A stretch of DNA of 44,019 nucleotides from Candidatus Bruticola sp. (GTDB lineage: Bacteria > Vulcanimicrobiota > Xenobia > Xenobiales > Xenobiaceae), in the NCBI GenBank assembly GCA_051874735.1, contig JBJEGD010000002.1:140434-184452 (forward strand), given 5' to 3'. The first letter of the stretch is position 1, and the number at the start of each line of letters is the position of its first letter. The translations under genes and the position numbers were made by a program. The notes below the pieces were generated by a model. The model searched no databases. It was not told where the DNA came from and saw nothing but the letters and a program-made list of their open reading frames with translations. Positions 3,443 to 44,019 of this stretch are shown piece after piece.

Positions 3443-3473
3443 TCTAGTACTTAATTGCTCCCCCGCTTTATAT

Positions 3474-3514: not shown

Positions 3515-3532
3515 AGAATTTTTCAGCTAACC

Positions 3533-6422: not shown

Positions 6423-6514
6423 TGTATCCTCTCATTTCCAATCGATCGTCAACTAACTCCCAGCTATAGGAACGATCGTTTCTTATTATATGCTCTTCGG
6501 TCGTATCCAGCATT

Positions 6515-8233: not shown

Positions 8234-10394
8234 CCACGTAGCCGCTGCTGCTGCCCTTACTAAAATCGGGAATAACCGTCTGGGGAGGATTAGAACGATC
8301 TGCAGGGGCGTTAGGAATTATTTCTCCACTTTCAGTGCGATTGATAAACTCTGGCTGTTTCGGACTTTCCGCAGCATAATTATCACCGTTTTCTTCGACT
8401 GCAGCTTCATTGCTATTAGCCTCTTCTTCTGGCCAACTCTCCCTCTGATCGTACCCACCTTCTTCAAACTCTGGGTTATAATCGCCCTCAGAATAATAAT
8501 TGTAAGTAGCCTCATCTGCCGGAACTTCTGACTCTACCTCCACAGCAGGGGCAACGTTCTTGACGACCTTAGGGGTTAACTGTTCTAAAGAGCGCAATTT
8601 TTTGACAGGTTGGGCAGAAGGCTGTTTAGGCTTAACCTCCTTTTCTGATTTACCTTCAGACCGGGACAAAGGATCGAATACACATCTAAAACCGGAATTA
8701 GCTAAGCGTCCCTGTTCGGGGAGTACACCGTGTTCCTGAGTAAGCACACACTCAACAGCGCTGTCACTGCGTGATCCTCCTTTAATAACTTTGGTCAAAG
8801 GGGTATATTCAGCAGCAGCTCCGTAAGGGATAAACCAAGTATCGACCCATTCCCACACGTTGCCGGCCATATCTTCAACCCCATAGGGAGAAGCACCGCG
8901 AGGGAAAGTGCCCACTTCAGAAGTGTTGGTTAGACCACTCTCCACACAGTTAAACCGGGTATAATCGGGTTCCCTTCCGCCCCAAGGATACAAGCGCAGA
9001 TCTCCTCCGCGGGCCGCCTTTTCCCACTCATTGGCTGTAGGCAGCCGTTTGCCAGCCCAGCGAGCATAAGCCTCACAATCGTAAAAAGAAACTCTGATTA
9101 CCGGATGGTCAAGGCGATCATCTGAAGCGGCCTCTTCCCAATTTCCTTGAGCTTTGTAGCCAGTAGCTTCCACAAATTTTTTAAACTGGCGATTGGTAAC
9201 TTCGTATCTATCTATGTAAAAAGCCGGCAGCTCCACCACAAAAGGACGAGCCGCTGAACCAGCTGCTGGCACTGGACCACTATAGTAAGGCCCCGCCGGT
9301 ATTAAAATCATAGGAGCTCCATCTTTAGGTGAAACCCATGACTGGGGCAAATTTTCTAAAGTAGGAGCAGGACGCCCCAGATCTTTGGCTATAGGAGCCG
9401 CTTTTTCATCGTTACTAACTACACCGCTATAAAAAAGCAAACTACCCACACAGAGAGTTCCTATTAAAGGTAGGGCTACCATAGCCACAACAGACCAATC
9501 AACATTTTTTAAAGCTTGCTTAAGAGCTCCAGCACTTTGGGCTACAGAAGCAGCCACCGGATCAGCGTCGTCAGCATATTCACTTTCTATAGCTAAAACA
9601 GCGGTTGATTTAGTTGCAGGAGGCTTAGCTAGCTGGATATTAACAGCAGCCGCGGCATACTCTTCAGAAGAGCTCCAGCGACGCTTTTTTTTCTTTTTCT
9701 TGAGCTGCTTTTCTTCTTGGCGTAAGCGATTAGCCCAGTCGCGAAAGTCAGGCAAAATATCGGAAGGTAAAGGACGCTCTCTAGGATCGGCTTCAAATAA
9801 ACGGCTGATCTGTTTATTAAGCCTACTGGATAGGGCCGGAATAGGCTCTAACTCGACATCGGGAATGAGCAAAGTCTGCGCATCGGCAGGCTGATGACCG
9901 CTCAGCAGATGATAAAGAGTCGCTCCCAATTGATAGTCGAGCACACCTGGGCCAATATCCCCTCTATTAACCTGTTCTGGAGCGCAGTAAGGAGAATGGC
10001 CTCGTTCTTCAAAACCAGGATCACAAAGTATAATTTTCTGCCCCTGTTTTATTAAATGTTCCGGACGCAGATCGCAAATTATAAACTCTGAAGGCACTGA
10101 AGAAAGCAGTTCGAGAATACGGCAGGCCGTCTCTGCATCAATAACTGGCTCCAAAGGCGCACCCTCAATCCAGGGACGAATGACAAAAATACGCCCTTCT
10201 TCCTCACAAACTGTGTAAGGGACAACCAGTCCTTTAATATCGCAGGAGCTCAATTCGTGAAGGCGCCTTTGAGCCTCTTCCAAGCTTATATGGCGCAGTT
10301 CCCGAATAGCCGCTAAACCGAACTTATCCGTTTTCCCATACCAAGTGCGCGGCCCCAAACTTTTCAGTTTAGGCAAAAGCGGCAAAATTTTCAC
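8205..10394 (-). CDS. Ser/Thr kinase-like domain + TM helix + FGE-sulfatase (SUMF1/EgtB/PvdO) domain protein
   Basis: DLRPEH, CDPG, YCAPEQ, DYQLGATLYHLLSG (kinase fold); TM segment; FYIDRYEVTN, HPVIRVS, RLPTANEWEKAARGG, MAGNVWEW, SGFRC. Confidence 0.85.
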   Translation of the reverse strand: MKILPLLPKLKSLGPRTWYGKTDKFGLAAIRELRHISLEEAQRRLHELSSCDIKGLVVPYTVCEEEGRIFVIRPWIEGAPLEPVIDAETACRILELLSSVPSEFIICDLRPEHLIKQGQKIILCDPGFEERGHSPYCAPEQVNRGDIGPGVLDYQLGATLYHLLSGHQPADAQTLLIPDVELEPIPALSSRLNKQISRLFEADPRERPLPSDILPDFRDWANRLRQEEKQLKKKKKKRRWSSSEEYAAAAVNIQLAKPPATKSTAVLAIESEYADDADPVAASVAQSAGALKQALKNVDWSVVAMVALPLIGTLCVGSLLFYSGVVSNDEKAAPIAKDLGRPAPTLENLPQSWVSPKDGAPMILIPAGPYYSGPVPAAGSAARPFVVELPAFYIDRYEVTNRQFKKFVEATGYKAQGNWEEAASDDRLDHPVIRVSFYDCEAYARWAGKRLPTANEWEKAARGGDLRLYPWGGREPDYTRFNCVESGLTNTSEVGTFPRGASPYGVEDMAGNVWEWVDTWFIPYGAAAEYTPLTKVIKGGSRSDSAVECVLTQEHGVLPEQGRLANSGFRCVFDPLSRSEGKSEKEVKPKQPSAQPVKKLRSLEQLTPKVVKNVAPAVEVESEVPADEATYNYYSEGDYNPEFEEGGYDQRESWPEEEANSNEAAVEENGDNYAAESPKQPEFINRTESGEIIPNAPADRSNPPQTVIPDFSKGSSSGYVDEDKVNYYE

Positions 10395-10804
10395 TATTTG
10401 TCATCTCCTCCCTCTGAATATGGCAGCTCTCTATCGCTGTCAGTTACACTTGGCTCAGCTTTAAGCGGTTCATCCCCTACAACTGCACTCAGCAAAGCTG
10501 CCAAACCGTCATCTTTGATGACGTCTAAATTTTCTATATCAGGCAAGCCGATAAACTGTTCGTTTACTTTAAGACAATCTGAACTCCACGGTTCCCAGTA
10601 AGGACAAACTTCTTTTTTCGTATCTTCTACTGTCTCCTTGACAGGAGCCATTAAATACTCTTCATGGCGGAACACATTCAACCTAGAGCAATGAAACAGA
10701 GAGTACTCTGTATCAAGAATTTCATCTATTTCTAAACCTTGATCGACAGTATCTAAATAACGACATAAAGCACAAACTTTCCATTTATCTTGAGTCATAA
10801 ACAC
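10394..10804 (-). CDS. Small Cys-rich acidic hypothetical protein (possible metal-binding)
   Basis: CALCRY...FHCSRL...CPYWEP; stop overlaps the next gene's start at 10394. Confidence 0.65.
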   Translation of the reverse strand: MFMTQDKWKVCALCRYLDTVDQGLEIDEILDTEYSLFHCSRLNVFRHEEYLMAPVKETVEDTKKEVCPYWEPWSSDCLKVNEQFIGLPDIENLDVIKDDGLAALLSAVVGDEPLKAEPSVTDSDRELPYSEGGDDK

Positions 10805-10894
10805 CTTTGCCTTAACCTAAAGAATATTTAATGTAAAAAAAAACAGCTCCCTCATCTAAAGCAAACTAAAGACGGGAGCCCTATAAATTCAGTT

Positions 10895-11803
10895 TTATTC
10901 AACAGGAAGTGGATGTTCAACTTGCGCAGCTGCTGATGCCGATGGCTGTTTTAGCTCCGCTTCAGACCGTTTTGCATCTTTTGCTGGAGTATCTGTCGGA
11001 GCAACAAGATTGGCAGCGGCAGATTTTTCTGAACCATTTGCAGCAGATTCCGTTATCTTAGATTCTGCAGCTGCTGACGGAACTGAGTAAGCCAATTTGT
11101 CTGCTACAGCTGTCAAGGCTTCAGCATGTTTTATAAATCCAGAACGAAAGCGCCCAAAACTAAAAGTGGCAGCGATATCGTAGAACTTGCTAAAAACAGA
11201 TTCCAGCGTTTGCTCGTTAAGTTCAGGATTATGTTTAAGCTGTTCAGCTGAAGGTTTATAGTCAATAGCCGATCCCAACAGAACATAGCCAAATCTTTCT
11301 TCTTGATCGTCCTTGACAGGTTCAACAAAAAACCAAGCTTTGCTATAAACTTTTAGTCCATCCTTTACTTGAGTGAAGCATACCCACGGAGCGGCCTCAT
11401 CGGCCCCTTCTTCGATGTTGTCAACTCCCTGAAGTTCACTGCGCAACTTCCCGATCTGAGCTTTAGCAAACTCACTAGCTCCAACTGTGGGACTGTCTAT
11501 TTTATTCTTAGTCAGGACGACATTACTCCTGAAACGATTTCCGTCAGGCAGCTCTATCAAAGGCGCCAAAGCTGTAACTATAGTGTTGCCTATGCCTCGG
11601 CGCAGTTCCCAAAATTGGTCTTCTCCTGAAACTTCTGCCGAACGAACTACCAAAGGAACAGTAAAGGAAACGCCATCTTCACAGAAACGTCCGATCTGAG
11701 CACTGTAGTGCGTTGACTGGGAAGCGGGACCACAAGCCCATAAACCGGACAGCAAAAGCGTAGATACAGAAACAACAGCAAAGCGCTTCAAATTCAATAA
11801 CAT
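10895..11803 (-). CDS. Putative lipoprotein of unknown function
   Basis: Signal peptide ending LWA-C; RBS-like aaggga upstream; Ala-rich tail. Confidence 0.65.
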   Translation of the reverse strand: MLLNLKRFAVVSVSTLLLSGLWACGPASQSTHYSAQIGRFCEDGVSFTVPLVVRSAEVSGEDQFWELRRGIGNTIVTALAPLIELPDGNRFRSNVVLTKNKIDSPTVGASEFAKAQIGKLRSELQGVDNIEEGADEAAPWVCFTQVKDGLKVYSKAWFFVEPVKDDQEERFGYVLLGSAIDYKPSAEQLKHNPELNEQTLESVFSKFYDIAATFSFGRFRSGFIKHAEALTAVADKLAYSVPSAAAESKITESAANGSEKSAAANLVAPTDTPAKDAKRSEAELKQPSASAAAQVEHPLPVE

Positions 11804-14759: not shown

Positions 14760-14834
14760 TGGTGGGTCGTACAGGACTCGAACCTGTGGCCACCTGATTA
14801 AAAGTCAGATGCTCTACCACTGAGCTAACGACCC
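14760..14834 (-). tRNA. tRNA-Lys(UUU)
   Basis: GGGTCGTTAGCTCAGTGGTAGAGCATCTGACTTTTAATCAGG...GTTCGAGTC...CGACCCACCA. Confidence 0.97.
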
Positions 14835-14869
14835 ATATCTCGTTCACAACTTTATAAAAGTGTTCGAGA

Positions 14870-14947
14870 TGGGGTGGATAGTGGGATTCGAACCCACGAC
14901 CTCCGGTTCCACAGACCGGCGCTCTAACCAACTGAGCTATATCCACC
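14870..14947 (-). tRNA. tRNA-His(GUG) with encoded G-1
   Basis: GGTGGATATAGCTCAGTTGGTTAGAGCGCCGGTCTGTGGAACCGG...GTTCGAATC...ATCCACCCCA. Confidence 0.97.
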
Positions 14948-14959
14948 ATATTATATTTT

Positions 14960-15035
<76 letters not shown>

Positions 15036-15066
15036 ATATACCTTATGCTATTCACCAGCGACACTC

Positions 15067-15144
15067 TGGTCGGAGCGGCCGGATTCGAACCGGCGACCCC
15101 TTGCTCCCAAAGCAAGTGCGCTATCCAGGCTGCGCTACGCTCCG
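15067..15144 (-). tRNA. tRNA-Pro(UGG)
   Basis: CGGAGCGTAGCGCAGCCTGGATAGCGCACTTGCTTTGGGAGCAAG...GTTCGAATC...GCTCCGACCA. Confidence 0.97.
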
Positions 15145-27792: not shown

Positions 27793-29049
27793 ATGACAGA
27801 AGAATTAACTTCAAAAGAAGTAGCCCGCTTGTACAGAGACTACATTAATCCCGATTTGGCCAGAATGATGCGTATTACCGGCCTAGGCACCGTTGAAGAT
27901 CACGCTAAAGGTTCCTACGTATGGGATGTAAGCGGCAAAAAATATCTCGATATGGCCGGCGGCTACGGAGTATTCTGTGTAGGTCATTCTCATCCTCACG
28001 TTATTGCCGCCGTTGAAAAACAGCTCCACAAAATGTCCCTCTCAGCTAAAGTTTTCTTTACAGAGGCTCAGGCGCGTTTGGCTAAAAAACTAGCCGAAAT
28101 TACCCCCGGAGAGTTGCGCTATTCCTTCTTCTGCAACAGCGGCACTGAAGCTGTAGAAGGGGCCTTAAAAATAGCCCGTTTAGCTACCGGCCGCCCCGTT
28201 TTTGTGGCCATGCATAACGCTTTCCATGGCAAATCGACCGGTGGTTTAGCCGTTTCCGGCCGTCCGAATTACAGAACCCCCTTTGAGCCTCTCATGCCGG
28301 AAGTTCGCCACATTCCTTTTGGCGACGTCGACGCCTTGAGTGAGGCTATCGACGAGACCGTTTCAGCTGTGATTGTAGAACCGGTTCAGGGTGAGGGCGG
28401 CATCCACGTAGCTCCTGACGGCTACTTGCAGAAGATGCGTGAAATTTGCGATCAGCACGGAACTCTTTTAATTGCCGATGAAGTACAAACTGGCTTCGGC
28501 CGTACCGGCAAAATGTTCGCTGTAAACCATTGGAATATTGCTCCTGATATTTTGGTTGTAGCTAAAGCGCTCAGCGGCGGAATTCTACCTATAGGTGCTT
28601 TTATCGGCACTCCCAAGGTTTGGTCAGCTTTTAAAGGACGTCCCACCATTCACACTTCAACTTTCGGGGGCAGTCCTCTGGCCTGCACGGCAGGTTTAGC
28701 AACCCTTGAAGTTTATGAGCAGGAAGATCTCTGTCGAAAAGCGGCAGAAAGCGGCGCGTACTTTAAAACAAAATTAGAAGAATTAGCGGCTCAGTATCCT
28801 GATTTGGTTAAAGAAATACGCGGTTTAGGTTTACTTTTAGGCTTAGAATCTACCAAAGAGGAATATGCCGGTTCGCTTATTTCTGAGATGTCCCATAGAG
28901 GTGTCATAGCTGTTTATACTTTAAATCAGCCTAAAGTTATTCGTTTTGAGCCTGCTTTAGCTATAACTCGTGAAGATATAGATATATGCTTGAAAGCTCT
29001 AGCTGAATCACTGGCCCAAACTAGAGAGCTTTTTGCCGGGCGCACGTAA
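27793..29049 (+). CDS. Class-III PLP-dependent aminotransferase (PatA/PigE-like omega-transaminase)
   Basis: YLDMAGGYG...GHSHP; NSGTEAVEGALK; AFHGKS; EPVQGEGG; DEVQTGFGRTG; PLP Lys in VAKALSGG; HTSTFGG. Confidence 0.92.
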   Translation: MTEELTSKEVARLYRDYINPDLARMMRITGLGTVEDHAKGSYVWDVSGKKYLDMAGGYGVFCVGHSHPHVIAAVEKQLHKMSLSAKVFFTEAQARLAKKLAEITPGELRYSFFCNSGTEAVEGALKIARLATGRPVFVAMHNAFHGKSTGGLAVSGRPNYRTPFEPLMPEVRHIPFGDVDALSEAIDETVSAVIVEPVQGEGGIHVAPDGYLQKMREICDQHGTLLIADEVQTGFGRTGKMFAVNHWNIAPDILVVAKALSGGILPIGAFIGTPKVWSAFKGRPTIHTSTFGGSPLACTAGLATLEVYEQEDLCRKAAESGAYFKTKLEELAAQYPDLVKEIRGLGLLLGLESTKEEYAGSLISEMSHRGVIAVYTLNQPKVIRFEPALAITREDIDICLKALAESLAQTRELFAGRT

Positions 29050-29375
29050 AGAACTAGGAAGCTCGAGGATAGAATATCTCTTTCCTTCTTTCCATTGGTC
29101 CGTTTTTGGGGTGTGCTGAAGCTGATTTTCCGCAAGTAGCTCTGATTTTTATACACAATTGGCTTAAGAAAGTCCTACCCACAGAACATGGGGAGGTTAG
29201 GTCTGCGGCTGCCGACGGCTTTGCCTTTCAGGCATAGTTATATGATTAACGAAAGCGAAGCAGCTGCGGAAAAAATGAGGAGAGCGGCGCCTCTCCACAG
29301 CCGTCAGGTTTAGTAAAGCTGGCCCGGCGGTAGTTCGCTATCGTCCCAGTCCCAATAGCAGTAACCGGAGGAACT

Positions 29376-29816
29376 ATGACTTACGTAGTCCGCAGTATCG
29401 TCGCCCAAGGCGACCCCAAAGCCGCTTATGAGCTCGCCAAAGACATGGAAAGCTTTCCTAAATTTATGCCAGACGTCCAAAGCATAGAGGTAGTAAAACG
29501 CGGCGATCATATGACTATCACCGATTGGAGTACAGAAATTGACGGTACCGAGCTTATCTGGACGGAAGAAGATCATTTTGATGACGAAAATCTTACCATC
29601 ACTTACAAACTTATCGAAGGTGATTTAGATAAATTTGAAGGTCAATGGGTCTTTGAGCCGTGCGAAGAAGGCTGCAAAATAACCCTATCTGTCGATTTCG
29701 ATTTCGGTATTCCTGAGCTTATCCACCTTATAGGCGGTGTGCTGGAAATCAAAGTGACAGAGAACTCAGATATGATGCTCAACAGTTTAAAATCGCGCAT
29801 TGAAGGACAGGCTTAA
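29376..29816 (+). CDS. SRPBCC/START-fold (polyketide cyclase/dehydrase, CoQ10-binding-like) protein
   Basis: DMESFPKFMPDVQSIEV...WTEED...EGDLDKFEGQWVF; GGAGGA RBS. Confidence 0.88.
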   Translation: MTYVVRSIVAQGDPKAAYELAKDMESFPKFMPDVQSIEVVKRGDHMTITDWSTEIDGTELIWTEEDHFDDENLTITYKLIEGDLDKFEGQWVFEPCEEGCKITLSVDFDFGIPELIHLIGGVLEIKVTENSDMMLNSLKSRIEGQA

Positions 29817-29819
29817 CTA

Positions 29820-30929
29820 GTGAACCGTTTCGGCTTCTTAATACACCCTTTAGGAATGCGTGATATTATCCGCCATCTCCCCAATGTAGCGGGTAAGCGT
29901 GAACCTCTAGTAAAAAAAGTATTAGAGTGGACGCCTTCTTATCACGCTTCCCATATTACTGGCGTAACCTCAGCCTTTGACGGCAGCGAAATTGAAGGCG
30001 ATTTTTACACAGTGCCTCTTTTCCCCCAGCAAATTACTGGTCTAGATCGTCAGTTTGTTCTTGAACGCATTATTAGTGCTTGTCGACTAGCTCAAAACGA
30101 TGGAGCTCAAATAGTTGGTCTCGGAGGCTATACTTCTGTTGTTGGCTCAGCAGGCCTGACTGTAGCTAAAGAAATAGACATAGCCGTTACCAGCGGCAAT
30201 AGCTACACTGTAGCCACCGCTGTTGAAGGGGCCACATCTGCTTGTGAGCTTTTAGGTTTAGATCCATCTCGAGCGGTAGTAGCCGTAGTAGGTGCGACCG
30301 GTTCCATTGGCAGCGTCTGTTCGAAGATATTGGCCCAAAAGGGTGTAGGAACTCTAATTCTGCTGGGCCGCTCTGAACAGCGTTTAGCCAACGTTGCGGA
30401 AGACATACGCTCTCTTTACCCTAATACTGATATACAAATTTCTATAGATATGGGAGCTAATATTAGACGCTCCGATCTAGTCGTAAGCTGTACATCTTCA
30501 GGCGGTGATATTTTACAGCCATCTATTTTCAAATCAGGTTCAGTAATCTGCGACGTCGCCGTACCCCACGACGTCTGCCGCGAAGTAGCTCAGCTGCGAC
30601 CTGACGTCTTAGTCATTGAGGGAGGCGTCTGCGTAGCCCCTGGCAAGAATCCCCAATTCAATTTTGATTTTGGCTTCCCTGAAGGCATATGTTTAGCTTG
30701 CATGGCTGAAACCATGATTTTAACTATGGAAGGACGCTTCGAAGATTTTTCTATTGGCCGAGGTCTACAAATAGAGAAGGTGGAAGAGATCAGCCGTTTA
30801 GCTAAAAAACACGGCTTTAAACTGGCCGGATTCCGCGCTTTCGATGAGCCGATCACGGCTGAGCGCATTGAACAGGTCAAGACCTTATCCAAAGAATACA
30901 ACAAGGAGCAGCGCACTTTCCAGTTATGA
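29820..30929 (+). CDS. Fatty acyl-ACP reductase-like NAD(P)-dependent reductase (often auto-annotated as shikimate dehydrogenase)
   Basis: FGFLIHP N-terminus; GLGGYTSV; TSGNSYT; VAVVGATGSIG Rossmann motif; DVAVPHD; ACMAE with the putative catalytic Cys. Confidence 0.8.
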   Translation: MNRFGFLIHPLGMRDIIRHLPNVAGKREPLVKKVLEWTPSYHASHITGVTSAFDGSEIEGDFYTVPLFPQQITGLDRQFVLERIISACRLAQNDGAQIVGLGGYTSVVGSAGLTVAKEIDIAVTSGNSYTVATAVEGATSACELLGLDPSRAVVAVVGATGSIGSVCSKILAQKGVGTLILLGRSEQRLANVAEDIRSLYPNTDIQISIDMGANIRRSDLVVSCTSSGGDILQPSIFKSGSVICDVAVPHDVCREVAQLRPDVLVIEGGVCVAPGKNPQFNFDFGFPEGICLACMAETMILTMEGRFEDFSIGRGLQIEKVEEISRLAKKHGFKLAGFRAFDEPITAERIEQVKTLSKEYNKEQRTFQL

Positions 30930-31864
30930 CAGAGCAGACAGAAAGTAAAAAAATTAAACGTGTTGTAAGCGTCAGCATAGGCTCCTCAGCCCGCGACCAC
31001 AGTGTAACGACAGAACTTTTGAGCCAGACCTTTGAAATTTCTCGTCGCGGCACCGACGGAAATTTGCGCCGGGCGAAAGAACTTATCGGAGAGCTAGACG
31101 GACAAGTCGACGCTATAGGACTAGGTGGTCTTGACGTTTACTTATACAGCAAAACTAAACGCTACGCTCTGCGCGACGGCTTGAAACTTTTACAAATAGC
31201 CCAAAAGACTCCGGTAGTCGACGGCAGCGGTTTAAAAAACACTTTAGAGCGCGAAATTATTCACATGTTATCTTCAGATGCGCGCATTCCGCTCCGAGGC
31301 AGCAAAGTCTTGATGGTCTGCGCTCTCGATCGCTTTGGCATGGCTGGAGCTTTAGAAGAGGCCGGCTCCAAGGTAACTTATGGAGATCTTATCTTTTCTC
31401 TCGATCTCGATCAGCCTATCCTTAGCCTTGATGAATTAGCAGAAAGGGCTGACAAGTTATTGCCCGACTTCTGCAAAATGCCCATCAGTATGCTTTACCC
31501 TACAGGCCAAAGACAAAATGCAATTGAACCTTCTCCACTAACTGACAAATACTATCTCGACGCAGATATTATTGCAGGCGACTTCCTCTTCATACGCCGT
31601 CGTCTTCCCGATCAGTTGCAAGGCAAAATTATTATTACTAACACGGTTACCAAAGCGGATCTTGACGAATTGCGCAAACGTGGTGTAGCATATTTGGTCA
31701 CTACTACGCCTGAATTTAACGGACGCTCCTTCGGCACCAATGTGATGGAGGCCGTAATGCTGGCAATTTTAGGCAAAAAGTGGGAAGAAGTTAAACCGCA
31801 AGATTATCTCGATTTAATCAAGCGCCTCAACTTCCAACCACGCATTGTTAAGCTTCAAGATTAA
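30926..31864 (+). CDS. Conserved protein of unknown function (family often labelled 'quinate 5-dehydrogenase')
   Basis: KRVVSVSIGSSARDH; RRGTDG; DGQVDAIGLGG; VDGSGLKNTLER; GRSFGTNVMEA; ATGA overlap with the reductase. Confidence 0.7.
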   Translation: MTEQTESKKIKRVVSVSIGSSARDHSVTTELLSQTFEISRRGTDGNLRRAKELIGELDGQVDAIGLGGLDVYLYSKTKRYALRDGLKLLQIAQKTPVVDGSGLKNTLEREIIHMLSSDARIPLRGSKVLMVCALDRFGMAGALEEAGSKVTYGDLIFSLDLDQPILSLDELAERADKLLPDFCKMPISMLYPTGQRQNAIEPSPLTDKYYLDADIIAGDFLFIRRRLPDQLQGKIIITNTVTKADLDELRKRGVAYLVTTTPEFNGRSFGTNVMEAVMLAILGKKWEEVKPQDYLDLIKRLNFQPRIVKLQD

Positions 31865-31915: not shown

Positions 31916-32440
31916 ATGGCTAACGAAAAAACTAATTATTTAACTAGACAAGGACTGATTGAAGCCCAACAAAAACTTCAATACTTGAAAACAACGAAGC
32001 GTGAACAGATTGCCGAGCGCATTCGCGTAGCCCGTGAATTCGGCGATATTTCAGAAAACGCTGAATATGAAAGTGCCAAAGCTGAACAAGGTTTTGTCGA
32101 AGGTACTATTAGCGAACTTGAACGCGTGCTGCAAAACTACACCATTATTGGCGAATCTGCCGATGATGGCGGCGCCCAGCTCAGCGAAGTAAATTTGGGT
32201 ACTTTGGTTACCATAGTTAATATGGATCTCGATGAGAACGGTCAGGAGGAGCGCTACTCCTTGGAGTTGGTTGGTACTCGTGAGACCAATCCTCAGGGCG
32301 GCCGCATTTCCAACGAGTGTCCCTTAGGTGCAGCTTTGCTCCATCACGGCTTGGGGGATATAGTCGATGTGAAAACTCCTAGCGGCGTTATTTCTTGGAA
32401 AATTGAGAAGATTCAGCCTGTAGGAATCAAAAATGCCTAG
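31916..32440 (+). CDS. greA: Transcription elongation factor GreA
   Basis: AREFGDISENAEYESAK.EQ; RISNECPLGAALL; V.VKTPSG. Confidence 0.96.
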   Translation: MANEKTNYLTRQGLIEAQQKLQYLKTTKREQIAERIRVAREFGDISENAEYESAKAEQGFVEGTISELERVLQNYTIIGESADDGGAQLSEVNLGTLVTIVNMDLDENGQEERYSLELVGTRETNPQGGRISNECPLGAALLHHGLGDIVDVKTPSGVISWKIEKIQPVGIKNA

Positions 32441-32562: not shown

Positions 32563-34533
32563 ATGAATCAGGAACATAAAAAAGATAAGCGTCAAGCTGT
32601 TCCAGAGCTCAGTTTGAGCGAACAGCAGGCAATCCGTATCCAACACTTAAAAGCTTTAGAAGAGCAGCACCTAAATCCTTACGGACACAGTTTTATCCGC
32701 ACTAAAAATGCAGCTTTTATTAAAGATAAATACAATTATTTAGAAAAAGAACAGGAATCGGAAGAAGAGGTTAGTTTAGCAGGCCGCATTACTGCCTGGC
32801 GAGGCCATGGTAAGGCTTCTTTCCTTGATCTGACCGATCTTTCTGATCGCATTCAGCTTTATTTCAAATACGATGTTTTAGGCGAAGAATCGTATCAACG
32901 CTTAAGTTTAGCCGATTTAGGTGATTTAATTACCGTCAGAGGCCCAATATTCCGCACTAGCCGGGGTGAACTTTCTATTAGGGTAAAAGAGTGGAGCGTA
33001 GCTGCTAAAAGCTTAATTCCACCGCCGGAAAAATTTCATGGTCTTACCGATGTGGAAGTGCGCTACAGGCAGCGTTATGCTGACTTAATAGCCAACAAAG
33101 ATGTACGCGAAGTTTTTGTCAAGCGCAGTCATATTGTTTCTACTATCCGTCGCTATTTAGATAATTTAGGGTTCTTAGAAGTAGAAACTCCCTGCATGTC
33201 TTCTGTAGCTGGCGGCGCTTCAGCGCGTCCTTTCATAACTCATCACAACGCTTTAAATGCGACTATGTATCTGCGCATTGCTACGGAGCTTCATTTGAAG
33301 CGCTGTATAGTAGGCGGCTTAGAAAAAGTTTACGAAATCGGGCGTATCTTCCGCAATGAAGGTCTGGACACCAAGCACAATCCTGAGTTTACCACTATTG
33401 AACTTTATGAGGCTTGGAGCGATTGTGCTGGTATGATGAGAATTACTGAAGGCATTATAGATACTTGCTGTCAGGAAGTTCTGCATACTCACAAAGTTAA
33501 CTTTAGAGGACATGAAATTGACTTGCGTCCTCCCTACCCGCGCCTAACCATGGATTCACTCTTCCAAAAATACGCAGGTATTTCTATTAAGGAGCTCAGA
33601 GAACCTGGACGCGCTAAAGCTAAAGCTTTAGAGCTGGGCATTAATTTAGGAAACAAAGAACATACCTTAGCCCATCTTATGGACAAAATCTTTGAAGCTA
33701 CTTGCGAAGAGCATTTAATTCAGCCAACTTTCGTTACTGAGCATCCCACTGAACTCTCTCCTTTAGCTAAGCGCAAAGACGACGATCCTACTCTTACTGA
33801 TCGTTTTGAACTTTTTGTTTGCGGCAGCGAGTTAGCTAATGCTTTCAGCGAAGTTAACGATCCCTTTGATCAGCGCAAACGTTTTGAGGAACAGCAGGCT
33901 CTGAAAAATCTCGACGAAGAAGCTCATCCTCTCGATGAAGACTTCCTTAATGCCCTTATGTACGGCATGCCCCCCACTGGCGGCTTAGGCTTGGGTATCG
34001 ATCGTTTAGTTATGCTCTTAACTGGTCAGAATTCTATTCGCGACGTCCTGCTATTCCCGACCATGAAACCTACAGATTCACCTAATAAGAGCGACAAACC
34101 TGAAACAATGACTCAGGATCTTTCAGTCAGCGAGCAGACGACTCCTACAAATGAAATCAATTTTTCCAACGTAGAAATTGAGCCGGCCTTCACTGAAATG
34201 GTTGATTTTGAAACTTTCTCCAAGTCAGACTTCCGAGCCGTTAAAGTGTTAGCTTGCGAAGCCGTAAAAAAATCTAAAAAACTCCTTAAGTTTACTCTCA
34301 ATGACGGCACCGACCAAGAGCGCACTATTTTAAGCGGTATTCATGCTTACTATGAGCCGGAAGAACTGGTCGGAAAAACTCTGCTGGCTATAACTAATTT
34401 ACCTCCTAAAACCATGATGGGCATAGAATCCTGCGGTATGCTGATTTCCGCTGTTCACCGTGAAAACGGCGAAGAGAAGCTACACCTGCTGATGCTCGAC
34501 GAGCATATTCCTGCTGGAGCTAAAATGCACTAA
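32563..34533 (+). CDS. lysS: Lysine--tRNA ligase (class II) with C-terminal Trbp111/MetG-like tRNA-binding domain
   Basis: RYRQRYADL; GGASARPFITHHN; FRNEGLDTKHNPEFT; YGMPPTGGLGLGIDRL; extra C-terminal OB domain RTILSGI...NLPP..MMGIESCGM. Confidence 0.97.
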   Translation: MNQEHKKDKRQAVPELSLSEQQAIRIQHLKALEEQHLNPYGHSFIRTKNAAFIKDKYNYLEKEQESEEEVSLAGRITAWRGHGKASFLDLTDLSDRIQLYFKYDVLGEESYQRLSLADLGDLITVRGPIFRTSRGELSIRVKEWSVAAKSLIPPPEKFHGLTDVEVRYRQRYADLIANKDVREVFVKRSHIVSTIRRYLDNLGFLEVETPCMSSVAGGASARPFITHHNALNATMYLRIATELHLKRCIVGGLEKVYEIGRIFRNEGLDTKHNPEFTTIELYEAWSDCAGMMRITEGIIDTCCQEVLHTHKVNFRGHEIDLRPPYPRLTMDSLFQKYAGISIKELREPGRAKAKALELGINLGNKEHTLAHLMDKIFEATCEEHLIQPTFVTEHPTELSPLAKRKDDDPTLTDRFELFVCGSELANAFSEVNDPFDQRKRFEEQQALKNLDEEAHPLDEDFLNALMYGMPPTGGLGLGIDRLVMLLTGQNSIRDVLLFPTMKPTDSPNKSDKPETMTQDLSVSEQTTPTNEINFSNVEIEPAFTEMVDFETFSKSDFRAVKVLACEAVKKSKKLLKFTLNDGTDQERTILSGIHAYYEPEELVGKTLLAITNLPPKTMMGIESCGMLISAVHRENGEEKLHLLMLDEHIPAGAKMH

Positions 34534-34799: not shown

Positions 34800-36131
34800 A
34801 TGAAAAAAAGCCCCTATATTATTTTATTGGCAGCACTACTAGTTGCCATTATTTTTTATGAAGTTCGGCCTTTATTTGCTTTTGGAATGTTCTTTCACGC
34901 AAGTTTGGCCTCTATGACACAGTCTAATATACTCTTTATGACCGCTTGCCTGGGGGGAGTTTGTGCATACTGGTTCTTGCTGCCGGTCAAAAAAGTTGAG
35001 CTTCTAATAGCTTTAGTTCTGGGGTTAGCTCTTGACGGTAGCTTAATCTGCTACCGATTAGCCCATGTTATAAACGATCCCCTAGAGGAACATTTGCTAT
35101 GTTTAGTCGATCTGGGACCGGGCCTTCTCGCGGGAGCTTCTTTAGCTATAATATGGAGAATTGTTCAGCATTATCGTCAAAAACAATTTGAAGAAGTAGG
35201 CAAATGCTTAGAAGTACTGGGCTTAGCTCTAGCTATGCCCGTTATCTTGAGCTTAGCTTCTGTAAAATGCGATCCTTACGTATACGATCCCCATTGTTAT
35301 GCGCTGGATTCTCTCTGGGGCACTCAAATTAGCTTTATTCTTTCTAAATTTTTGCGAAGTTCTTTACCCCTGCGTCTTTTTATGACGGCCATCTATGTAT
35401 ATTTATCACTTTACATGATGCTGGCGCAAATTATTGTTTATAAAGATAATGAACGGCTCGGACTTAAACATAGCCGCTTTTTGATTCCTGCCTTTTACTT
35501 TATTTTAATCGGTGTTTGCGGCAGCTTCATTTACGAATTTTTTCCTGTAGTCGGCGTAGATTTGTACTGCGGTCAAAACCGTTTTCCCGATGGTCCCTGG
35601 CCGACGGCTAACATGAATCCGGTTCCTATTGCCGCCCCTCCTCAATTTATCCGCAACGGCATGCCCAGTCTGCACTTAGCTTGGATTTTAGCTGTTTACT
35701 ACTCACTGTACCGAGCCAAGCCAATTTACCGCTACATAGCTTTAGGCTTAATATTTTTTACCGTATTGTCAACCTTCAGTGTCGGCTGCCACTACCTAAT
35801 CGATCTACTTATAAGCCTGCCCTTCTGTACAGCTTCCCTATCTGTAGTCATGACTGAAGCGCCTAAAAAACTGCGCCTGACTGCCTTTACTATTTGTACC
35901 GTTGCTACAGTAATTTGGCTGGTCTTATTTAAGTATAGCATAAACTCAGCTTTGGCATTCCCGGTCTTAACTAACATTCTACTGATTTTTACCGACATAA
36001 TTTCTCTATACTTAGCTAATCTTCTCTGCCGTTATTCAGCTAAGGAAGTGCAAAAAGCCATAGAGGCAGCTTCTACCAAGACTCAGCAAGTCAAACAAGA
36101 CCATCAAAACATTTCTATAAACGAAACATAA
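34800..36131 (+). CDS. Polytopic membrane PAP2-superfamily protein, Aur1/inositol-phosphorylceramide-synthase-like
   Basis: Many TM segments; RNGMPSLHLAW and GCHYLIDL (compare Aur1 PSLH and HYFVD). Confidence 0.8.
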   Translation: MKKSPYIILLAALLVAIIFYEVRPLFAFGMFFHASLASMTQSNILFMTACLGGVCAYWFLLPVKKVELLIALVLGLALDGSLICYRLAHVINDPLEEHLLCLVDLGPGLLAGASLAIIWRIVQHYRQKQFEEVGKCLEVLGLALAMPVILSLASVKCDPYVYDPHCYALDSLWGTQISFILSKFLRSSLPLRLFMTAIYVYLSLYMMLAQIIVYKDNERLGLKHSRFLIPAFYFILIGVCGSFIYEFFPVVGVDLYCGQNRFPDGPWPTANMNPVPIAAPPQFIRNGMPSLHLAWILAVYYSLYRAKPIYRYIALGLIFFTVLSTFSVGCHYLIDLLISLPFCTASLSVVMTEAPKKLRLTAFTICTVATVIWLVLFKYSINSALAFPVLTNILLIFTDIISLYLANLLCRYSAKEVQKAIEAASTKTQQVKQDHQNISINET

Positions 36132-36219: not shown

Positions 36220-37560
36220 ATGAAGAAAAATCCTTACCTAATTTTGCTAGCTATTATAATTATGCTAGCCGTTTTATTTGAAATAGCTCCACTGTTTAAC
36301 CTACCTGTCCGCTTCCTCCATACAAGCTTAATAGGCGAAGCCTATTATAACCCTCTTTTTGGCACAGCCTGCCTAGGTGGCGCTTTAGCTTATTTGTTTC
36401 TGCTGCCTGTCAATAAAAAAGAACTCGCTATTTTTTCTATTTTGGGCTTAATTTTTGAAACCGCGCTTATAAAATGGAGGTTGTCCATTATAGGACCAGT
36501 CGGTCAAATTCTCCATATAGGTCCGGGCCTGCTTTCTGCTTATATCTTAGCGATAATATACCGTGCAGTAAGTCATTATCTCATACAACAAAAAGAAGAA
36601 CTTGTTTCCTCGCTGGAGGCGCTGTGCTTAGCAGCAGTCATGCCTATTATGCTGGGTTTAGGAGCCTCCATTTTGCGCTTTAATCCCTACGTTTACGATC
36701 CGCATTGTTACGCCCTTGATTCTTTATGGGGAGGACAGCCCAGTTTCATTATCAGCAAAGTTTTCAGCAGTACTTTAACTATACGATTAATTATGTATGC
36801 TGTTTACTTTTATCTATCTTTATATATGATAGGCGCTCAGATAATTGTCTTTCTCGAAAACAAGAGCCTCAAAATTGCCCACAGCAAACGCTTAATTCCA
36901 GCCTTTTTATTTATAGTTATCGCCATAGCCGGCAGCTGCCTGTATCATTTCTTCCCCGTAGTAGGCGTACAGGCTTACTGCGGCGCTTCTCGTTTTCCCA
37001 GCGGTCCCTGTCCTCCCGCCAACTTATCTCCTACTCCTATAGAAGCTCCACTATTTTTGGCTCGCAACGGCATGCCCAGCCTACACCTATCCTGGATTAT
37101 AGCGACATTTTTCTCACTCTACGGGGCCCAAATTGGCTGGCGCCGCATAGCCTTCGCTTTAACTGTACTCACAGCTATATCTACTTTTAGTGTGGGATAC
37201 CACTACCTTATCGATCTGATTATAGCCTTGCCGTTCTGCCTAGCAGCTACGGCCATTCCCTTAGTAGAAGTTCCAGCTAAATGGCGTTTAATAAGCGCTA
37301 TTTACGGCGCAACGACAGTAGTGTTTTGGTTAAGTCTGTTTAAATATAATATTACTTATTGTTTAAGTTCTCCCCGTCTAACCCTATCCGGCTTAACTTT
37401 AACCGCTTTAATATCCATCGCTCTAATAGCTAAACTATACAAAGAAGCACAACAAGCTTCGTCTGCTACACTCCAAAATACAGAAGAAATTAATCATCTT
37501 GAAAGCGATCAGCCTGTAGAAACGGCCGTTTTCTCAGAGAGCCACCCTCCAATTTCTTAA
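36220..37560 (+). CDS. Second Aur1/IPC-synthase-like PAP2 membrane protein (tandem paralog)
   Basis: RNGMPSLHLSW, GYHYLIDL; shares PYVYDPHCYALDSLWG with the upstream copy. Confidence 0.8.
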   Translation: MKKNPYLILLAIIIMLAVLFEIAPLFNLPVRFLHTSLIGEAYYNPLFGTACLGGALAYLFLLPVNKKELAIFSILGLIFETALIKWRLSIIGPVGQILHIGPGLLSAYILAIIYRAVSHYLIQQKEELVSSLEALCLAAVMPIMLGLGASILRFNPYVYDPHCYALDSLWGGQPSFIISKVFSSTLTIRLIMYAVYFYLSLYMIGAQIIVFLENKSLKIAHSKRLIPAFLFIVIAIAGSCLYHFFPVVGVQAYCGASRFPSGPCPPANLSPTPIEAPLFLARNGMPSLHLSWIIATFFSLYGAQIGWRRIAFALTVLTAISTFSVGYHYLIDLIIALPFCLAATAIPLVEVPAKWRLISAIYGATTVVFWLSLFKYNITYCLSSPRLTLSGLTLTALISIALIAKLYKEAQQASSATLQNTEEINHLESDQPVETAVFSESHPPIS

Positions 37561-40387: not shown

Positions 40388-42067
40388 TTACAAACCAGCC
40401 CAGTTGCGTCTTTCAATAAAAGTACTCGGTTCGACAGTGAAGCCATTTTTCAGACGCATAGCTTCACGTTTAATAGAAGCTAAAATAACTGGTCCGCTTA
40501 TCATACCAACCATTTTAGTTAGTGAACCGAAATCACAAGAAAACTGCTGACGTAAATTATGAATACGTTCCTGCACATACTGATTTGACTCTTTAAAATA
40601 TTGCTCCATTGCCCAAAGAGCTCCGTAAGCATAGCGACGCACAGACGCAGAATCGTTTTCTAAACGGCGCAGTACCCTAGCATTATCGTAACTTCGGAAG
40701 TTCTTCCACCCTTTCCAAATGGTGTTGATAACTCTGAAAACACTGGGGCCGTTGACGTCGTAATCAGCTTGGAAAGCTCTCAACAAAAATTCTTCACTTT
40801 GCTCTGGAGTGATATACGGATGTCTAAAATTAAAGCGGTACTGACCGTGAATATCTGCTAAATTCACATCGTCGAGCATAGCCCCCTTCTCCATTTGTTC
40901 TTTAAACAGAGGTGTACCGGGCAAAGGAGTATAAAGCATAAATTGATGGAAATCAGTATTATGCTTTATGGCTCTGGCTATAACTTTATCAATATTTTCA
41001 GGTGTATGATTCTCTAAACCTATAATGCTGGAACCTAAAACTTTTACGCCCAGCTCCTGTAAGCGTCCGACAAACTCAACTGAGTCGCAGCCTTTGAGCT
41101 TAGCATACTGGCTATCTTCACCTTCCAGCCCCATCCAAAGCCAAGAAAGCCCCAACCGCAACAATTCATCCATAGAATACTGACGCAGAGCATTAGCAGA
41201 AGAAAAACAATAAAGTGACCAGGCTTTACCATCTCGCTCCATCAAATCGAGCAACTCCATAGCTCTGGGACGATTGAGCAGAAAATTTTCATCCATCATA
41301 AAGAAGGAGCTGGTACCAAGTCTCTTTTCAAAGCCGCACATCAAATTATACAATTCTTCGCCGCTGTCATAGAAAGTAACTGAATGGCCCTTTCCTCCAA
41401 AAAGAGCTGAAGTGGCGCAGAAGTTACATCCCATAGGGCAACCTACAGAAGTAATTACTGTCGCAGCGGTATCTTTAGTACTGGACTTTACATCAATACC
41501 AAAAAGACGGGTGCCGAAACCTGATACGATATCAGGATGAACAATTTTAGCAGTTTCATCTTCACCCAAAAAGTGACGGAACCAGCTCACCCCTTCTCCT
41601 TTGGCGACATAATCTGCTTCTATCATATTTTCCAAACCTGGAATGGAAGCTACATGACCGCCTACCACTATAATACTGCGCGGAGAATAAGTGCGCACCA
41701 GTTGGCACATACGGCGCACCTTCCCTACATTAGCTACAATGCCACTTATACCAACGATATCATAATCGCCAGTCTGCAGTTCGTGAATAAAACGCTCTTG
41801 AGTAGGGAAATCTAGCAATGTAGAAGGGGCAGAAATGTTTTGTTGGATAAACATAAGCCCCCAAGAACGGTGAAACATACGCAAAGAAAAAGGCCCTTGC
41901 ACTCTAGTTACCTGATTATGGTACAGTTCCATGGGATTGATCGCCCGGCTGCCAAAAGAATCATTTTGCGCATAAGGACCAAAAACAGAAGAGAATAAAA
42001 TTGTAGGTTGTCTGCGTCCGGTGCCTTTATACACGGGACGATCAACTTCGGCATTATGTGAACTCAT
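40388..42067 (-). CDS. B12-binding domain radical SAM protein
   Basis: DIVGIS...IVVGGH...GEG cobalamin-binding region; CPMGCNFC (CxxxCxxC); DENF; GLE; TPLPGTPL. Confidence 0.92.
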   Translation of the reverse strand: MSSHNAEVDRPVYKGTGRRQPTILFSSVFGPYAQNDSFGSRAINPMELYHNQVTRVQGPFSLRMFHRSWGLMFIQQNISAPSTLLDFPTQERFIHELQTGDYDIVGISGIVANVGKVRRMCQLVRTYSPRSIIVVGGHVASIPGLENMIEADYVAKGEGVSWFRHFLGEDETAKIVHPDIVSGFGTRLFGIDVKSSTKDTAATVITSVGCPMGCNFCATSALFGGKGHSVTFYDSGEELYNLMCGFEKRLGTSSFFMMDENFLLNRPRAMELLDLMERDGKAWSLYCFSSANALRQYSMDELLRLGLSWLWMGLEGEDSQYAKLKGCDSVEFVGRLQELGVKVLGSSIIGLENHTPENIDKVIARAIKHNTDFHQFMLYTPLPGTPLFKEQMEKGAMLDDVNLADIHGQYRFNFRHPYITPEQSEEFLLRAFQADYDVNGPSVFRVINTIWKGWKNFRSYDNARVLRRLENDSASVRRYAYGALWAMEQYFKESNQYVQERIHNLRQQFSCDFGSLTKMVGMISGPVILASIKREAMRLKNGFTVEPSTFIERRNWAGL

Positions 42068-42325: not shown

Positions 42326-44019
42326 TTAATTTGTCAATAATTTTGCACCCTTAACTTCCTGAGCAGTAAATTCAGCCACAGTTGCCAAGATAGCTGCTCC
42401 GTACTTTTTTAATTTGACCAGTCCAACTCCAGATATTTGGGAAAGTTCTTCTAAAGTACGTGGACGCTGCTGAGCAATCAAAAGCAAAGAAGTATCATGC
42501 AGTACCATATAAGGAGCTAATTTTTCCTGACGAGCTAATTCCATACGTTTGCGCCGCAGTATTTCAAAAAGGGCACTAATTGCCTGAGTACTGACTCCAC
42601 CAGTAGATGAACTTGTTAAAGTATTTAAAACTGAACTCCCAGAGTTTTTGGGGCTTGGGGCGGATTTACGCAGCCTCCCAGATTTGATTTCTGGATCGAG
42701 GCGCAGCAACAGCTCAGTTTTACTGCCGTCTAATAATTCCCGACTGCGTTTCGTAAGCTTAACACTGCCGCAACCGACCATGTCAGTTTTTAAATATCCC
42801 GACGCTAAAAGCTGGCGAAATACGGAGGTCCACTGTTTTACGCTAAGCTCCTTGCCTATAGCATAGGTGCTGATTTTATCATGTCGGCGGGCTAAAATGC
42901 GCTCATTCTTACCTCCGCGCAGCACTTGAATTAAATAAGAAACTCCGTACATTTGGCCAGTACGATAAACACAAGAAAGAGCTTTTTGGGCGTAAACCAA
43001 ACCATTAGAAGCTTGAGGAGGATCGACACAATTGTCACAATGGCCACAATTGTGTTCCAATTGTTCTCCGAAATAACTTAGCAAAGCTCGTCTGCGGCAA
43101 GAGACCGTTTCACATATTCCCAATAAAGCCCGCAATCTGCGCCGTTCAATCGCTTTATGAGCTTCATCAGCTTCAGACTCTTCAATAAATTTTTGGCGCA
43201 ACACTATATCTTTAATGTTATAGGAGAGCCAAGCAGAAGCAGGAAGTCCATCCCGGCCAGCCCTGCCAGTTTCCTGGTAATAAGCCTCTACGCTGCTTGG
43301 CAGAGCAAAATGAGCCACGAAACGCACGTTCGGCTTATCTATACCCATACCGAAAGCTATGGTCGCGGCCATGATCACGCCTTCTTCTCTAAGAAAACGT
43401 GCCTGATTGGCAGCCCGCTCACTTTGAGTCATACCCGCATGATAAGGGAGAGCCTCATATCCCAAACTGCAAAGCCACTGAGCAGTCTCTTCAGTATCTT
43501 TACGACTCAAACAATAAACAATACCGGAATCTCCTCGATGCCTGCTCTCTATAAAATTTATGAAACGCTGCCTAGTTTCGCTTACCCCTTCAGACTGAGG
43601 ACAAATTGTATAAAATATGTTAGGACGATCGAAACTGGTAATAAAACGTCTAGCTCCCTTAAGCTCTAAATGACTGATAATATCCAGCCTTGTAGCCTCG
43701 TCGGCAGTAGCAGTTAAAGCTATCCACGGAACATGGGGAAAAAACTGGCGTAATTTCATCAGCTGCACATATTCAGGTCGAAAGTCATGCCCCCACTGCG
43801 ACACACAATGGGCTTCATCTATGGCTATTAAAGACAGCCGACAACTGCTGAGCATATTCAGAAAGCCATCCATAATAGCTCTTTCGGGAGACACATAAAG
43901 TAGATCTAACTCTCCGGCATAAATTTTTGCACAGACACGGCGGGCTTCTTCTGGCTCCAAAGAAGAATTTAAAAATGCAGCCCTCACGCCACTGCTAATT
44001 AAAGCATCTACCTGATCTT
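42326..44019 (-). CDS. recQ: ATP-dependent DNA helicase RecQ (5' end outside the window)
   Basis: DQVDAL...; [17 protein letters not shown]; LTATA; [15 protein letters not shown]; [12 protein letters not shown]; Zn-binding CRR...CGHCDNC; RQC and HRDC domains. Confidence 0.97.

Follow-up and report, generated by a model that had tools for sequence, protein, structure and literature searches.

A four-gene PigE/TamH-like module beside greA-lysS in Candidatus Bruticola: a candidate route to long-chain alkylamines for membrane lipids

In this study, we analyzed a window of 44,019 nucleotides from Candidatus Bruticola sp., an uncultured gut bacterium of the phylum Vulcanimicrobiota, class Xenobia (contig JBJEGD010000002.1, positions 140,434 to 184,452) and characterized in silico four co-oriented genes that lie directly upstream of greA and lysS. 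They code for a class-III (omega-type) aminotransferase (AT), a small protein of the SRPBCC/START fold (SRPBCC), a predicted NAD(P)H thioester reductase (RED), and a conserved partner of this reductase (UNK). Our results suggest that the four genes probably form a housekeeping module that converts an activated fatty acyl group into an aldehyde and then into a long-chain primary alkylamine for membrane lipids. Judging from homology, RED would take the acyl group from its carrier onto Cys294 and, with NAD(P)H as reductant, release it as a fatty aldehyde, and AT, a pyridoxal phosphate-dependent enzyme, would turn the aldehyde into the alkylamine. The acyl donor may be acyl-acyl carrier protein (acyl-ACP) or possibly an acyl-phosphate, the latter hinted at by fusions of RED to PlsY. 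The SRPBCC protein may bind or hand over the hydrophobic aldehyde, and UNK could be a substrate-docking or regulatory subunit working with RED, or could carry out a further step. From the distribution of the genes and the literature, the amine would finally become part of membrane phosphoglycolipids of the N-glyceroyl alkylamine type.

Gene products of the module

RED (29820..30929, forward strand) is a protein of 369 amino acids with a GTG start codon. We assign it, at the level of the superfamily and from sequence comparisons, to the thioester reductases with a catalytic cysteine represented by the N-terminal half of PigE and by cyanobacterial acyl-ACP reductase (AAR). RED matches positions 2-363 of the 837 positions of the PigE model NF053554 with 214.6 bits (E 2.7e-63) and the AAR model TIGR04058 with 103.6 bits (E 1.3e-29), scores that do not reach the respective equivalog cut-offs of 850 and 449.7 bits. 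A profile of 13 RED sequences compared with the PDB identified PigE (4ppm, E 3.5e-58) and AAR (6jzu, E 3.9e-40), as well as the carmabin terminal amidation domain (TAD; 9e4s/9e50, E 9e-10) and glutamyl-tRNA reductase (GluTR; 1gpj, E 3.1e-5). The sequence-only reading of this DNA had proposed that the protein carries the motif series of AAR, and this series is indeed present as FGFLIHP, GLGGYTS, TSGNSYT, VAVVGATGSIGS, and LACMAET. The latter, which contains Cys294, aligns to ACFAEAM of 6jzu, and VAVVGATGSIGS aligns to VAVVGATGDIGS. More generally, the GLGG(Y/F)TS, TSGN, GATGxIG, and AC(M/F)AE motifs, including the catalytic cysteine, can be aligned between RED, 4ppm, and 6jzu, and C294 and the glycines G158, G161, and G164 are invariant in the 13 sequences. 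According to a passage of PMC9594044, it is C294 of the Synechococcus elongatus AAR that carries the acyl group.

The name given to RED in public records is shikimate dehydrogenase. The Pfam Shikimate_DH match (PF01488, E 3.2e-10) covers only residues 150-260, which correspond to the NAD domain, and the NCBIfam shikimate dehydrogenase model NF009201 yields 21 bits, short of its cut-off of 235. Matches to GluTR fall far short of their cut-offs as well (NF000744, E 7e-14, 51.5 versus 429 bits; TIGR01035, 42.6 versus 209.55 bits, NAD domain only). Hence, the HMM and PDB profile matches bear out the placement of this protein with PigE-N and AAR instead of with shikimate or amino-acid dehydrogenases. 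The family is large: a HMMER search of 1.84 billion representative sequences returned 3169 relatives at E <=1e-3 and 792 at E <=1e-30.

AT (27793..29049, forward strand; 418 amino acids) is, by its sequence, assigned to the PigE-C/YgjG-type class-III aminotransferases. It passes the Pfam PF00202 gathering score of 30.5 with 393 bits. Its top NCBIfam match is putrescine aminotransferase (NF008570, 471.4 bits, cut-off 612), and it scores 423.5 bits (E 1.9e-126) against the C-half of PigE (NF053554, positions 375-743; cut-off for PigE 850) and 405.7 bits against YgjG (TIGR03372, cut-off 658.65). That the PigE C-half and YgjG are among the best models agrees with the PigE kind of transaminase initially predicted. 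The ArgD subfamily model TIGR00707 is reached by a minimal margin (410.2 bits, cut-off 410.05). No argC gene was found above the cut-off in the genome (best 38.5 versus 233.6 bits), and there is only one class-III aminotransferase besides AT. Orthologues of AT with 46-52% identity are present elsewhere in the genome in 5/5 RED-bearing Firmicutes genomes, and for those of Neomoorella and Carboxydothermus the PigE C-half is the best match (533 and 492 bits).

The SRPBCC protein (29376..29816, forward strand; 146 amino acids) matches Polyketide_cyc (PF03364; E 3e-18, 66.7 bits, gathering score 23.4) and PF10604 (E 5.5e-13, 49.9 bits, gathering score 27.4). The SRPBCC fold binds hydrophobic ligands.

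UNK (30926..31864, forward strand; 312 amino acids) has no match in Pfam or NCBIfam. It has at least 7997 homologues, and its public name, 'quinate 5-dehydrogenase', is a misnomer. An AlphaFold2 model computed from 41 sequences (pLDDT 93.5) resembles most closely AAR (6jzq, Z 13.6 over 247 aligned residues) and the carmabin TAD (9e4s, Z 13.0), versus Z values of at most 10.3 for glutamate dehydrogenases and binding proteins and of 8.0-9.3 for shikimate and quinate dehydrogenases. The model thus predicts an AAR fold that lacks both the catalytic cysteine and the GxGxxG motif. An invariant DRFG stands where GxGxxG would be expected, an invariant T-N...E is found in the region that aligns by eye with the ACMAE of RED, and many other polar residues are invariant. 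These features suggest that UNK may be an ancient AAR-fold paralogue devoid of the catalytic cysteine, a paralogy that we infer from the model. A search of solved structures by sequence with the UNK profile had no hits at E <0.1. A prediction of the RED-UNK complex scored 0.13 and 0.01, where the mark is 0.32, and weighs neither way. Some Clostridia and Carboxydothermus harbor a second, weaker UNK paralogue (E 1e-66 to 1e-105).

Inspection of the DNA confirmed the four co-oriented genes at the exact coordinates first read, with the last three tightly coupled. The SRPBCC stop codon (TAA, 29814-29816) is separated by a 3-base gap from the GTG of RED at 29820, and RED and UNK share an ATGA overlap (30926-30929). 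AT and SRPBCC are 326 bp apart (29050-29375); in one related locus, the tblastn matches to these genes are only ~37 bp apart. An antisense open reading frame (ORF) of 88 amino acids in this region (29310-29576, reverse strand) is probably spurious. An Rfam scan of the locus, including the gap between AT and SRPBCC, detected no RNA family, and promoter- or terminator-like sites at the locus were no commoner than in shuffled sequence.

Gene order, fusions and distribution

We examined 88 RED-centred loci from public genomes; two pairs lay on the same contig, which leaves 86 distinct loci. The flanks of RED contain UNK in 71 loci, SRPBCC in 32, AT in 31, and greA or lysS in 70. Two architectures dominate. 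The order found in the window, AT>SRPBCC>RED>UNK(>greA>lysS), occurs in 30 of the 86 loci, plus two that are cut off before AT; its carriers are Vulcanimicrobiota/Eremiobacterota and some unclassified metagenome-assembled genomes (MAGs). The closest named relative, a Candidatus Bruticola MAG, shares 93-95% protein identity with the window over RED and AT. The other order, UNK>RED>greA>lysS, is complete in 31 loci, mostly from Firmicutes (Neomoorella, Pelosinus, Halonatronum). RED and UNK are adjacent in both architectures, although in opposite relative order. This arrangement cannot be ascribed to chance, because the same four genes recur in the same order in 30/86 loci.

The conserved core of the module is RED plus UNK, and AT and SRPBCC form a separate pair elsewhere in many Firmicutes genomes. 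Pelosinus and Halonatronum have an AT-SRPBCC pair, in which the SRPBCC orthologue comes directly after AT, and a separate UNK-RED pair. Because the AT-SRPBCC pair stands apart in these genomes, the four genes can be understood as two pairs that are merged in the phylum of the window. The genes flanking the AT-SRPBCC pair in Firmicutes, the AT-RED fusions, and AT and UNK in Thermaceae included no further pathway genes. In the Firmicutes loci scanned upstream, coaX-dusB and a small helix-turn-helix (HTH) gene lie 5' of UNK/RED. The latter, located between dusB and UNK/RED (6468-6998, 5545-6078, and 5527-6054 in three loci), codes for a possible regulator of ~176 amino acids; two of the three proteins scanned have an HTH_3 motif.

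Gene fusions also tie the components together. Comparing the four window proteins by BLASTP with the 150 best RED representatives, we counted 101 proteins with RED only, 30 UNK-RED, 12 SRPBCC-RED, and 7 AT-RED fusions. The number of UNK-RED fusions is a minimum, because two of two tested 'RED only' proteins of ~700 amino acids have an UNK-like N-half (hhalign, probability 96%). The Atlas suggests Chloroflexota and Pseudomonadota as carriers of the UNK-RED fusions. One AT-RED fusion was traced to Chromobacterium, and AT-RED ORFs of 976 and 898 amino acids occur in two Clostridia-type genomes, one of which also has UNK>RED>greA>lysS. One further representative joins RED to a PlsC-type acyltransferase. 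A plasmid search for RED retrieved only PigE-like fusions of Proteobacteria, with ~31% identity. Since fusions of all three kinds exist, AT, SRPBCC, and UNK are each joined to RED somewhere in nature. Together with the shared loci, these fusions substantiate the co-conservation of the four genes anticipated from the sequence, and the presence of the set in Pelosinus and Halonatronum extends it to diderm Firmicutes, as had been expected.

The module is near-universal in its own phylum, where RED was found in 118/121 genomes (90/91 of those of high quality) and UNK in 120/121. This prevalence, along with a greA-lysS context kept in 70/86 loci, upholds the housekeeping position that had been proposed. 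A Clostridia-type sample was drawn from the phylum of a Fervidicella genome; it comprises 121 related genomes, and its counts are descriptive. RED is present in 82 and UNK in 90 of them: 81 genomes have both, nine UNK only, one RED only (at a contig end), and 30 neither. In the family of Neomoorella stamsii (Moorella), RED occurs in 23/23 genomes. On a control panel, TIGR04058 matched Synechococcus (over the cut-off), Thermus thermophilus, Deinococcus radiodurans, and Methanocaldococcus jannaschii, and gave no match in the other 10 genomes, which include Escherichia coli and Bacillus subtilis.

Deinococcota are the classic producers of N-glyceroyl alkylamine lipids. The components had been expected in Thermus and Deinococcus, and we found RED-like sequences in 71/71 and UNK in 71/71 genomes of a Deinococcota sample. 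Nearly all of the RED-like sequences lie in open frames of ~550-720 amino acids, and in the Deinococcota genomes checked for this (6/6), the fusion partner of RED is a PlsY paralogue. For instance, the ORFs of Thermus caliditerrae (671 amino acids) and Meiothermus hypogaeus (635 amino acids) have PlsY as N-half (PF02660; E 1.6e-26 and 9.3e-28, respectively) and RED as C-half; the UNK profile did not match the N-half of the Thermus fusion. Three or four PlsY paralogues are present per genome in these fusion-bearing Thermaceae, and the fused one is divergent and therefore not the housekeeping PlsY. In five Thermaceae genomes, reached via the pTT27 RepA protein, a RED homologue is present in 5/5 (35-38% identity) and a stand-alone UNK in 5/5 (E ~1e-125 against the profile; ~50% identity by tblastn in the two compared). 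AT matches with 50-51% identity are likewise found in 5/5, four intact and one interrupted by stop codons; the Thermaceae AT falls under the same family profile as the window AT and scores far below the LysJ cut-off. The fusion of RED to PlsY and the known substrate of PlsY suggest an acyl-phosphate donor in Deinococcota.

Several observations were made around these genes. The T. caliditerrae (8002-10017) and M. hypogaeus (7418-9325) fusions are followed on their 3' side by a PNP_UDP_1 phosphorylase-family gene, with an enoyl-CoA hydratase gene in between in Meiothermus. In two Thermus genomes, the contig with the AT orthologue also has, ~7 kb further downstream, a second PlsY paralogue that is divergent (10571-11092 and 136303-136821, with AT at 2693-3907 and 128335-129549, respectively). 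In Thermus parvatiensis RL, both the RED-like (1459854-1460890) and the AT-like (1121687-1122830) matches are interrupted by stop codons. We did not use this as a case of co-loss: another aminotransferase is interrupted as well, and assembly errors are as likely as decay. In three Thermaceae genomes examined, the AT orthologue lies upstream of the RNase R gene. UNK lies upstream of efp-accB-accC in T. caliditerrae. A role in the modification of EF-P was considered and dropped, because the adjacency to efp is not seen in Meiothermus and the fusions point to lipids.

Proposed link to alkylamine lipids and alternative readings

The phosphoglycolipid of T. thermophilus carries an alkylamine, and a passage of PMC9636437 reports, as of 2022, that the enzymes for its third hydrophobic chain were not identified. 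N-glyceroyl alkylamines are tabulated for Moorella thermoacetica in PMC13274423, and the title of a work cited there (Bale et al., 2025) gives them as dominant in several Bacillota. The four genes described here may account for the alkylamine-bearing membrane lipids of Thermus, Deinococcus, and some Firmicutes. A bolder version is that the module is the missing route to the alkylamine third chain, that such lipids are a core trait far beyond Deinococcota, that UNK is a subunit needed by RED, and that the donor in Deinococcota is an acyl-phosphate; we hold this combination tentatively, as a real possibility that falls a little short of probable. If it is true, the distribution of the module together with its role in the third chain would predict the lipid far beyond Deinococcota, namely in most Clostridia and Negativicutes, as well as in Armatimonadota and Chloroflexota, and throughout the uncultured Vulcanimicrobiota/Eremiobacterota, gut members included.

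A number of data weigh against a role of the module in alkylamine lipids. RED is present in 82/121 Clostridia-type genomes, far more widely than the lipids have been reported, and the table of PMC13274423 lists N-glyceroyl alkylamines in just one of seven Bacillota strains. The literature searched named no genes for the alkylamine third chain; Bale et al. (2025) was outside its scope and might name such genes or contradict the distribution. In Deinococcota genomes, RED, UNK, and AT are dispersed. The orthology of the Deinococcota RED appears less secure than that of UNK and AT (~50% identity), because of its 35-38% identity and its different build as a PlsY fusion, and the Thermus aminotransferase, being YgjG-like, could instead belong to polyamine metabolism. 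Moreover, RED lies beside greA-lysS without UNK in 10/86 loci. UNK was found elsewhere in the genome in two of two tested cases of this kind, and also in two of two loci with neither UNK nor greA-lysS. Finally, the RED and UNK profiles align with an hhalign probability of 0.5% (E 0.11), and only along the GLGG stretch. The relation between UNK and RED is thus one of fold, as their profiles are not significantly related.

The competing explanations differ in how much of the proposed chemistry they retain. The whole chemistry could be kept on another substrate than a long-chain fatty acyl group, or for another product than a membrane lipid, such as a small metabolite, a signalling amine, or a modification of proteins or of the cell envelope. 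We regard this as unlikely but worth serious consideration, as homology to PigE and TamH fixes the reaction type only and the substrate of PigE itself is a branched keto-thioester, according to a passage of PMC8341465. The transcription and translation neighbours (greA-lysS in the window, efp in T. caliditerrae) and the lack of lipid genes around the AT-SRPBCC pair or the AT-RED fusions point in the same direction. However, Meiothermus does not share the adjacency to efp, fusions join RED to PlsY in Deinococcota, to SRPBCC in 12/150 representatives, and to a PlsC-type acyltransferase in one, and the distribution of the module matches the phyla known for alkylamine lipids. A different possibility is that RED and UNK provide a fatty aldehyde for another lipid class (a fatty alcohol, an ether, or another), with AT being an unrelated ornithine, putrescine, or acetylornithine transaminase located upstream by chance. 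This would suit a cross-phylum core made of RED and UNK, the adjacency of AT in just 31/86 loci, its top match to putrescine aminotransferase, and its score at the limit of the argD subfamily cut-off. We nevertheless consider it improbable in view of the AT-RED fusions (7/150 representatives and the two Clostridia-type genomes) and of the AT matches that share its family profile, one of them interrupted, in all five Firmicutes and all five Thermaceae genomes that have RED; in addition, no argC exceeds its cut-off in the genome and AT stays below the YgjG cut-off (471 versus 612).

Two further explanations take issue with the identity of RED itself. The conserved adjacency to lysS, the weak GluTR matches (NF000744, 1gpj), and the analogy to GluTR-GSAM noted for PigE in a passage of PMC8341465 could speak for an aminoacyl-tRNA reductase, acting for example on the Lys-tRNA of the neighbouring lysS, with AT in the role of glutamate-1-semialdehyde (GSA) aminomutase. 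This is very improbable. The GluTR scores lie far below their cut-offs, with Pfam and PDB matches limited to the NAD domain, and RED matches PigE and AAR better by 20 to 50 orders of magnitude. Furthermore, the fusions to PlsY, to a PlsC-type acyltransferase, and to SRPBCC speak for lipids, and greA and lysS are both missing next to RED in 9/86 loci and in those Deinococcota loci that were examined. As to the names in public records, which along with the Shikimate_DH match would make RED and UNK shikimate/quinate 5-dehydrogenases, they run against the partial extent of that match, the 21 bits obtained against the NCBIfam model, and the lack of any family match for UNK, whose model is closer to AAR than to these dehydrogenases (Z 13.6 versus 8-9). 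Membership in a pigment (prodiginine or tambjamine) cluster fares no better. The ORFs of the window that were scanned include no pigment genes, as the sequence-only reading had held, the module is near-universal in a whole phylum, and the cluster setting of PigE is not encountered here. We give hardly any credence to either the dehydrogenase or the pigment alternative. Other uses of the enzymes, in an argC-dependent route or with an aldehyde-deformylating oxygenase (ADO) as partner, are unlikely given the absence of argC over the cut-off, the single other class-III aminotransferase, and the lack of a match to the ADO model PF11266 in the genome (92% complete), a model that does detect its Synechococcus control.

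The proposed fatty-amine module provides concrete candidate genes for a lipid trait, which can be tested by knock-out in the genetically tractable Thermus. It would also imply an unexpected class of lipids in many anaerobes. It also offers a likely role for two very large families that are uncharacterized or misnamed (UNK, at least 7997 members; RED, more than 3000). Besides, a natural split fatty-amine pathway would be of use for biocatalysis.

Neighbouring genes and comparison with known systems

The neighbours of the module in the window are ABC transporter, greA, lysS, and PAP2 genes. The conserved neighbours greA (31916..32440, forward strand; Pfam GreA_GreB_N and GreA_GreB; NCBIfam GreA, 159 bits, above the cut-off) and lysS, coding for lysyl-tRNA synthetase (32563..34533, forward strand; Pfam tRNA-synt_2, tRNA_anti-codon, and tRNA_bind), are not counted in the pathway. 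The tRNA_bind domain (PF01588) of LysS is C-terminal (residues 558-654), and tblastn matches to LysS in other loci stop near residue 505, so this extension may not be general. Directly 3' of lysS, two tandem genes (34800-36131 and 36220-37560, forward strand) code for PAP2_3 (PF14378) membrane proteins. The first of these proteins shows 49-80% identity in close relatives, versus 84-96% for the flanking genes, and is absent from the flank in more distant loci. The tandem proteins may transfer head groups of lipids; any connection with the amine pathway would be speculation. Elsewhere in the window, we noted a B12-binding radical SAM protein (40388-42067, reverse strand) beside an ORF of similar length (42326-43987, reverse strand), and a cluster of four tRNA genes (14763-15144, reverse strand).

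Among known systems, PigE (NF053554; PDB 4ppm) has an N-half similar to RED and a C-half, a class-III transaminase, similar to AT, and it has in common with the module the logic of thioester to aldehyde to amine. According to a passage of PMC8341465, the N-domain of PigE is AAR-like and reduces the thioester before transamination. However, PigE is a single polypeptide of 837-861 amino acids from a pigment cluster of Proteobacteria, whereas in the window the two activities are predicted from separate genes in reversed order, within a housekeeping locus that also contains SRPBCC and UNK. TamH, from the tambjamine YP1 pathway, also combines an AAR-family reductase with an omega-transaminase, as RED and AT would do, and its domain order is that of the AT-RED fusions. 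As stated in a passage of PMC9594044, the reductase domain of TamH belongs to the AAR family and has a catalytic cysteine, and TamA and TamH together turn a C12 acid into a C12 amine, with TamH acting on the ACP-bound C12 acyl group. Unlike the split enzymes described here, which have two extra partners and no dedicated carrier gene nearby, TamH is a fusion of secondary metabolism that needs the carrier TamA.

Other systems share only part of this logic. Cyanobacterial AAR (6jzu/6jzq) has in common with RED the fold, the GATGxIG motif, and the cysteine in ACxAE, and UNK is predicted to have its fold too. AAR works with ADO to yield alkanes, whereas the downstream enzyme here is a transaminase and the product would therefore be an amine and not an alkane. 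For TabQ/TabE/TabA of Streptomyces albus (tambjamine BE-18591), bioRxiv 10.1101/2025.08.11.669332 describes a split pathway in which a reductase and an omega-transaminase, each stand-alone, convert acyl-ACP through the aldehyde into dodecylamine. TabE is there a member of the aldehyde-dehydrogenase/LuxC superfamily and not of the AAR family, and the genes belong to a pigment cluster that has its own ACP and is not described with an SRPBCC or UNK partner. The carmabin TAD (9e4s/9e50) has an AAR-like fold with NAD bound near an invariant cysteine, as described in bioRxiv 10.1101/2024.10.28.620694. This domain ends nonribosomal peptide synthetase modules, and UNK lacks its cysteine and nucleotide motif. 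In GluTR-GSAM (HemA-HemL), a cysteine-thioester reductase passes an aldehyde to a class-III pyridoxal phosphate enzyme, the analogy that PMC8341465 draws for PigE in the passage concerned. The substrate of GluTR is glutamyl-tRNA, and RED reaches only 42.6 of the 209.55 bits set as the hemA cut-off.

Altogether, the module follows PigE and TamH in its reaction logic and so represents a kind of system that is already known. What is new is its split four-component form, its housekeeping context, and its near-universality in Vulcanimicrobiota and Deinococcota. Two partner families, the AAR-fold protein predicted to lack the cysteine and the dedicated SRPBCC protein, were not described in the literature searched. 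The fusions to PlsY and to a PlsC-type acyltransferase are new as well, as is the proposed link to a lipid without assigned biosynthesis genes.

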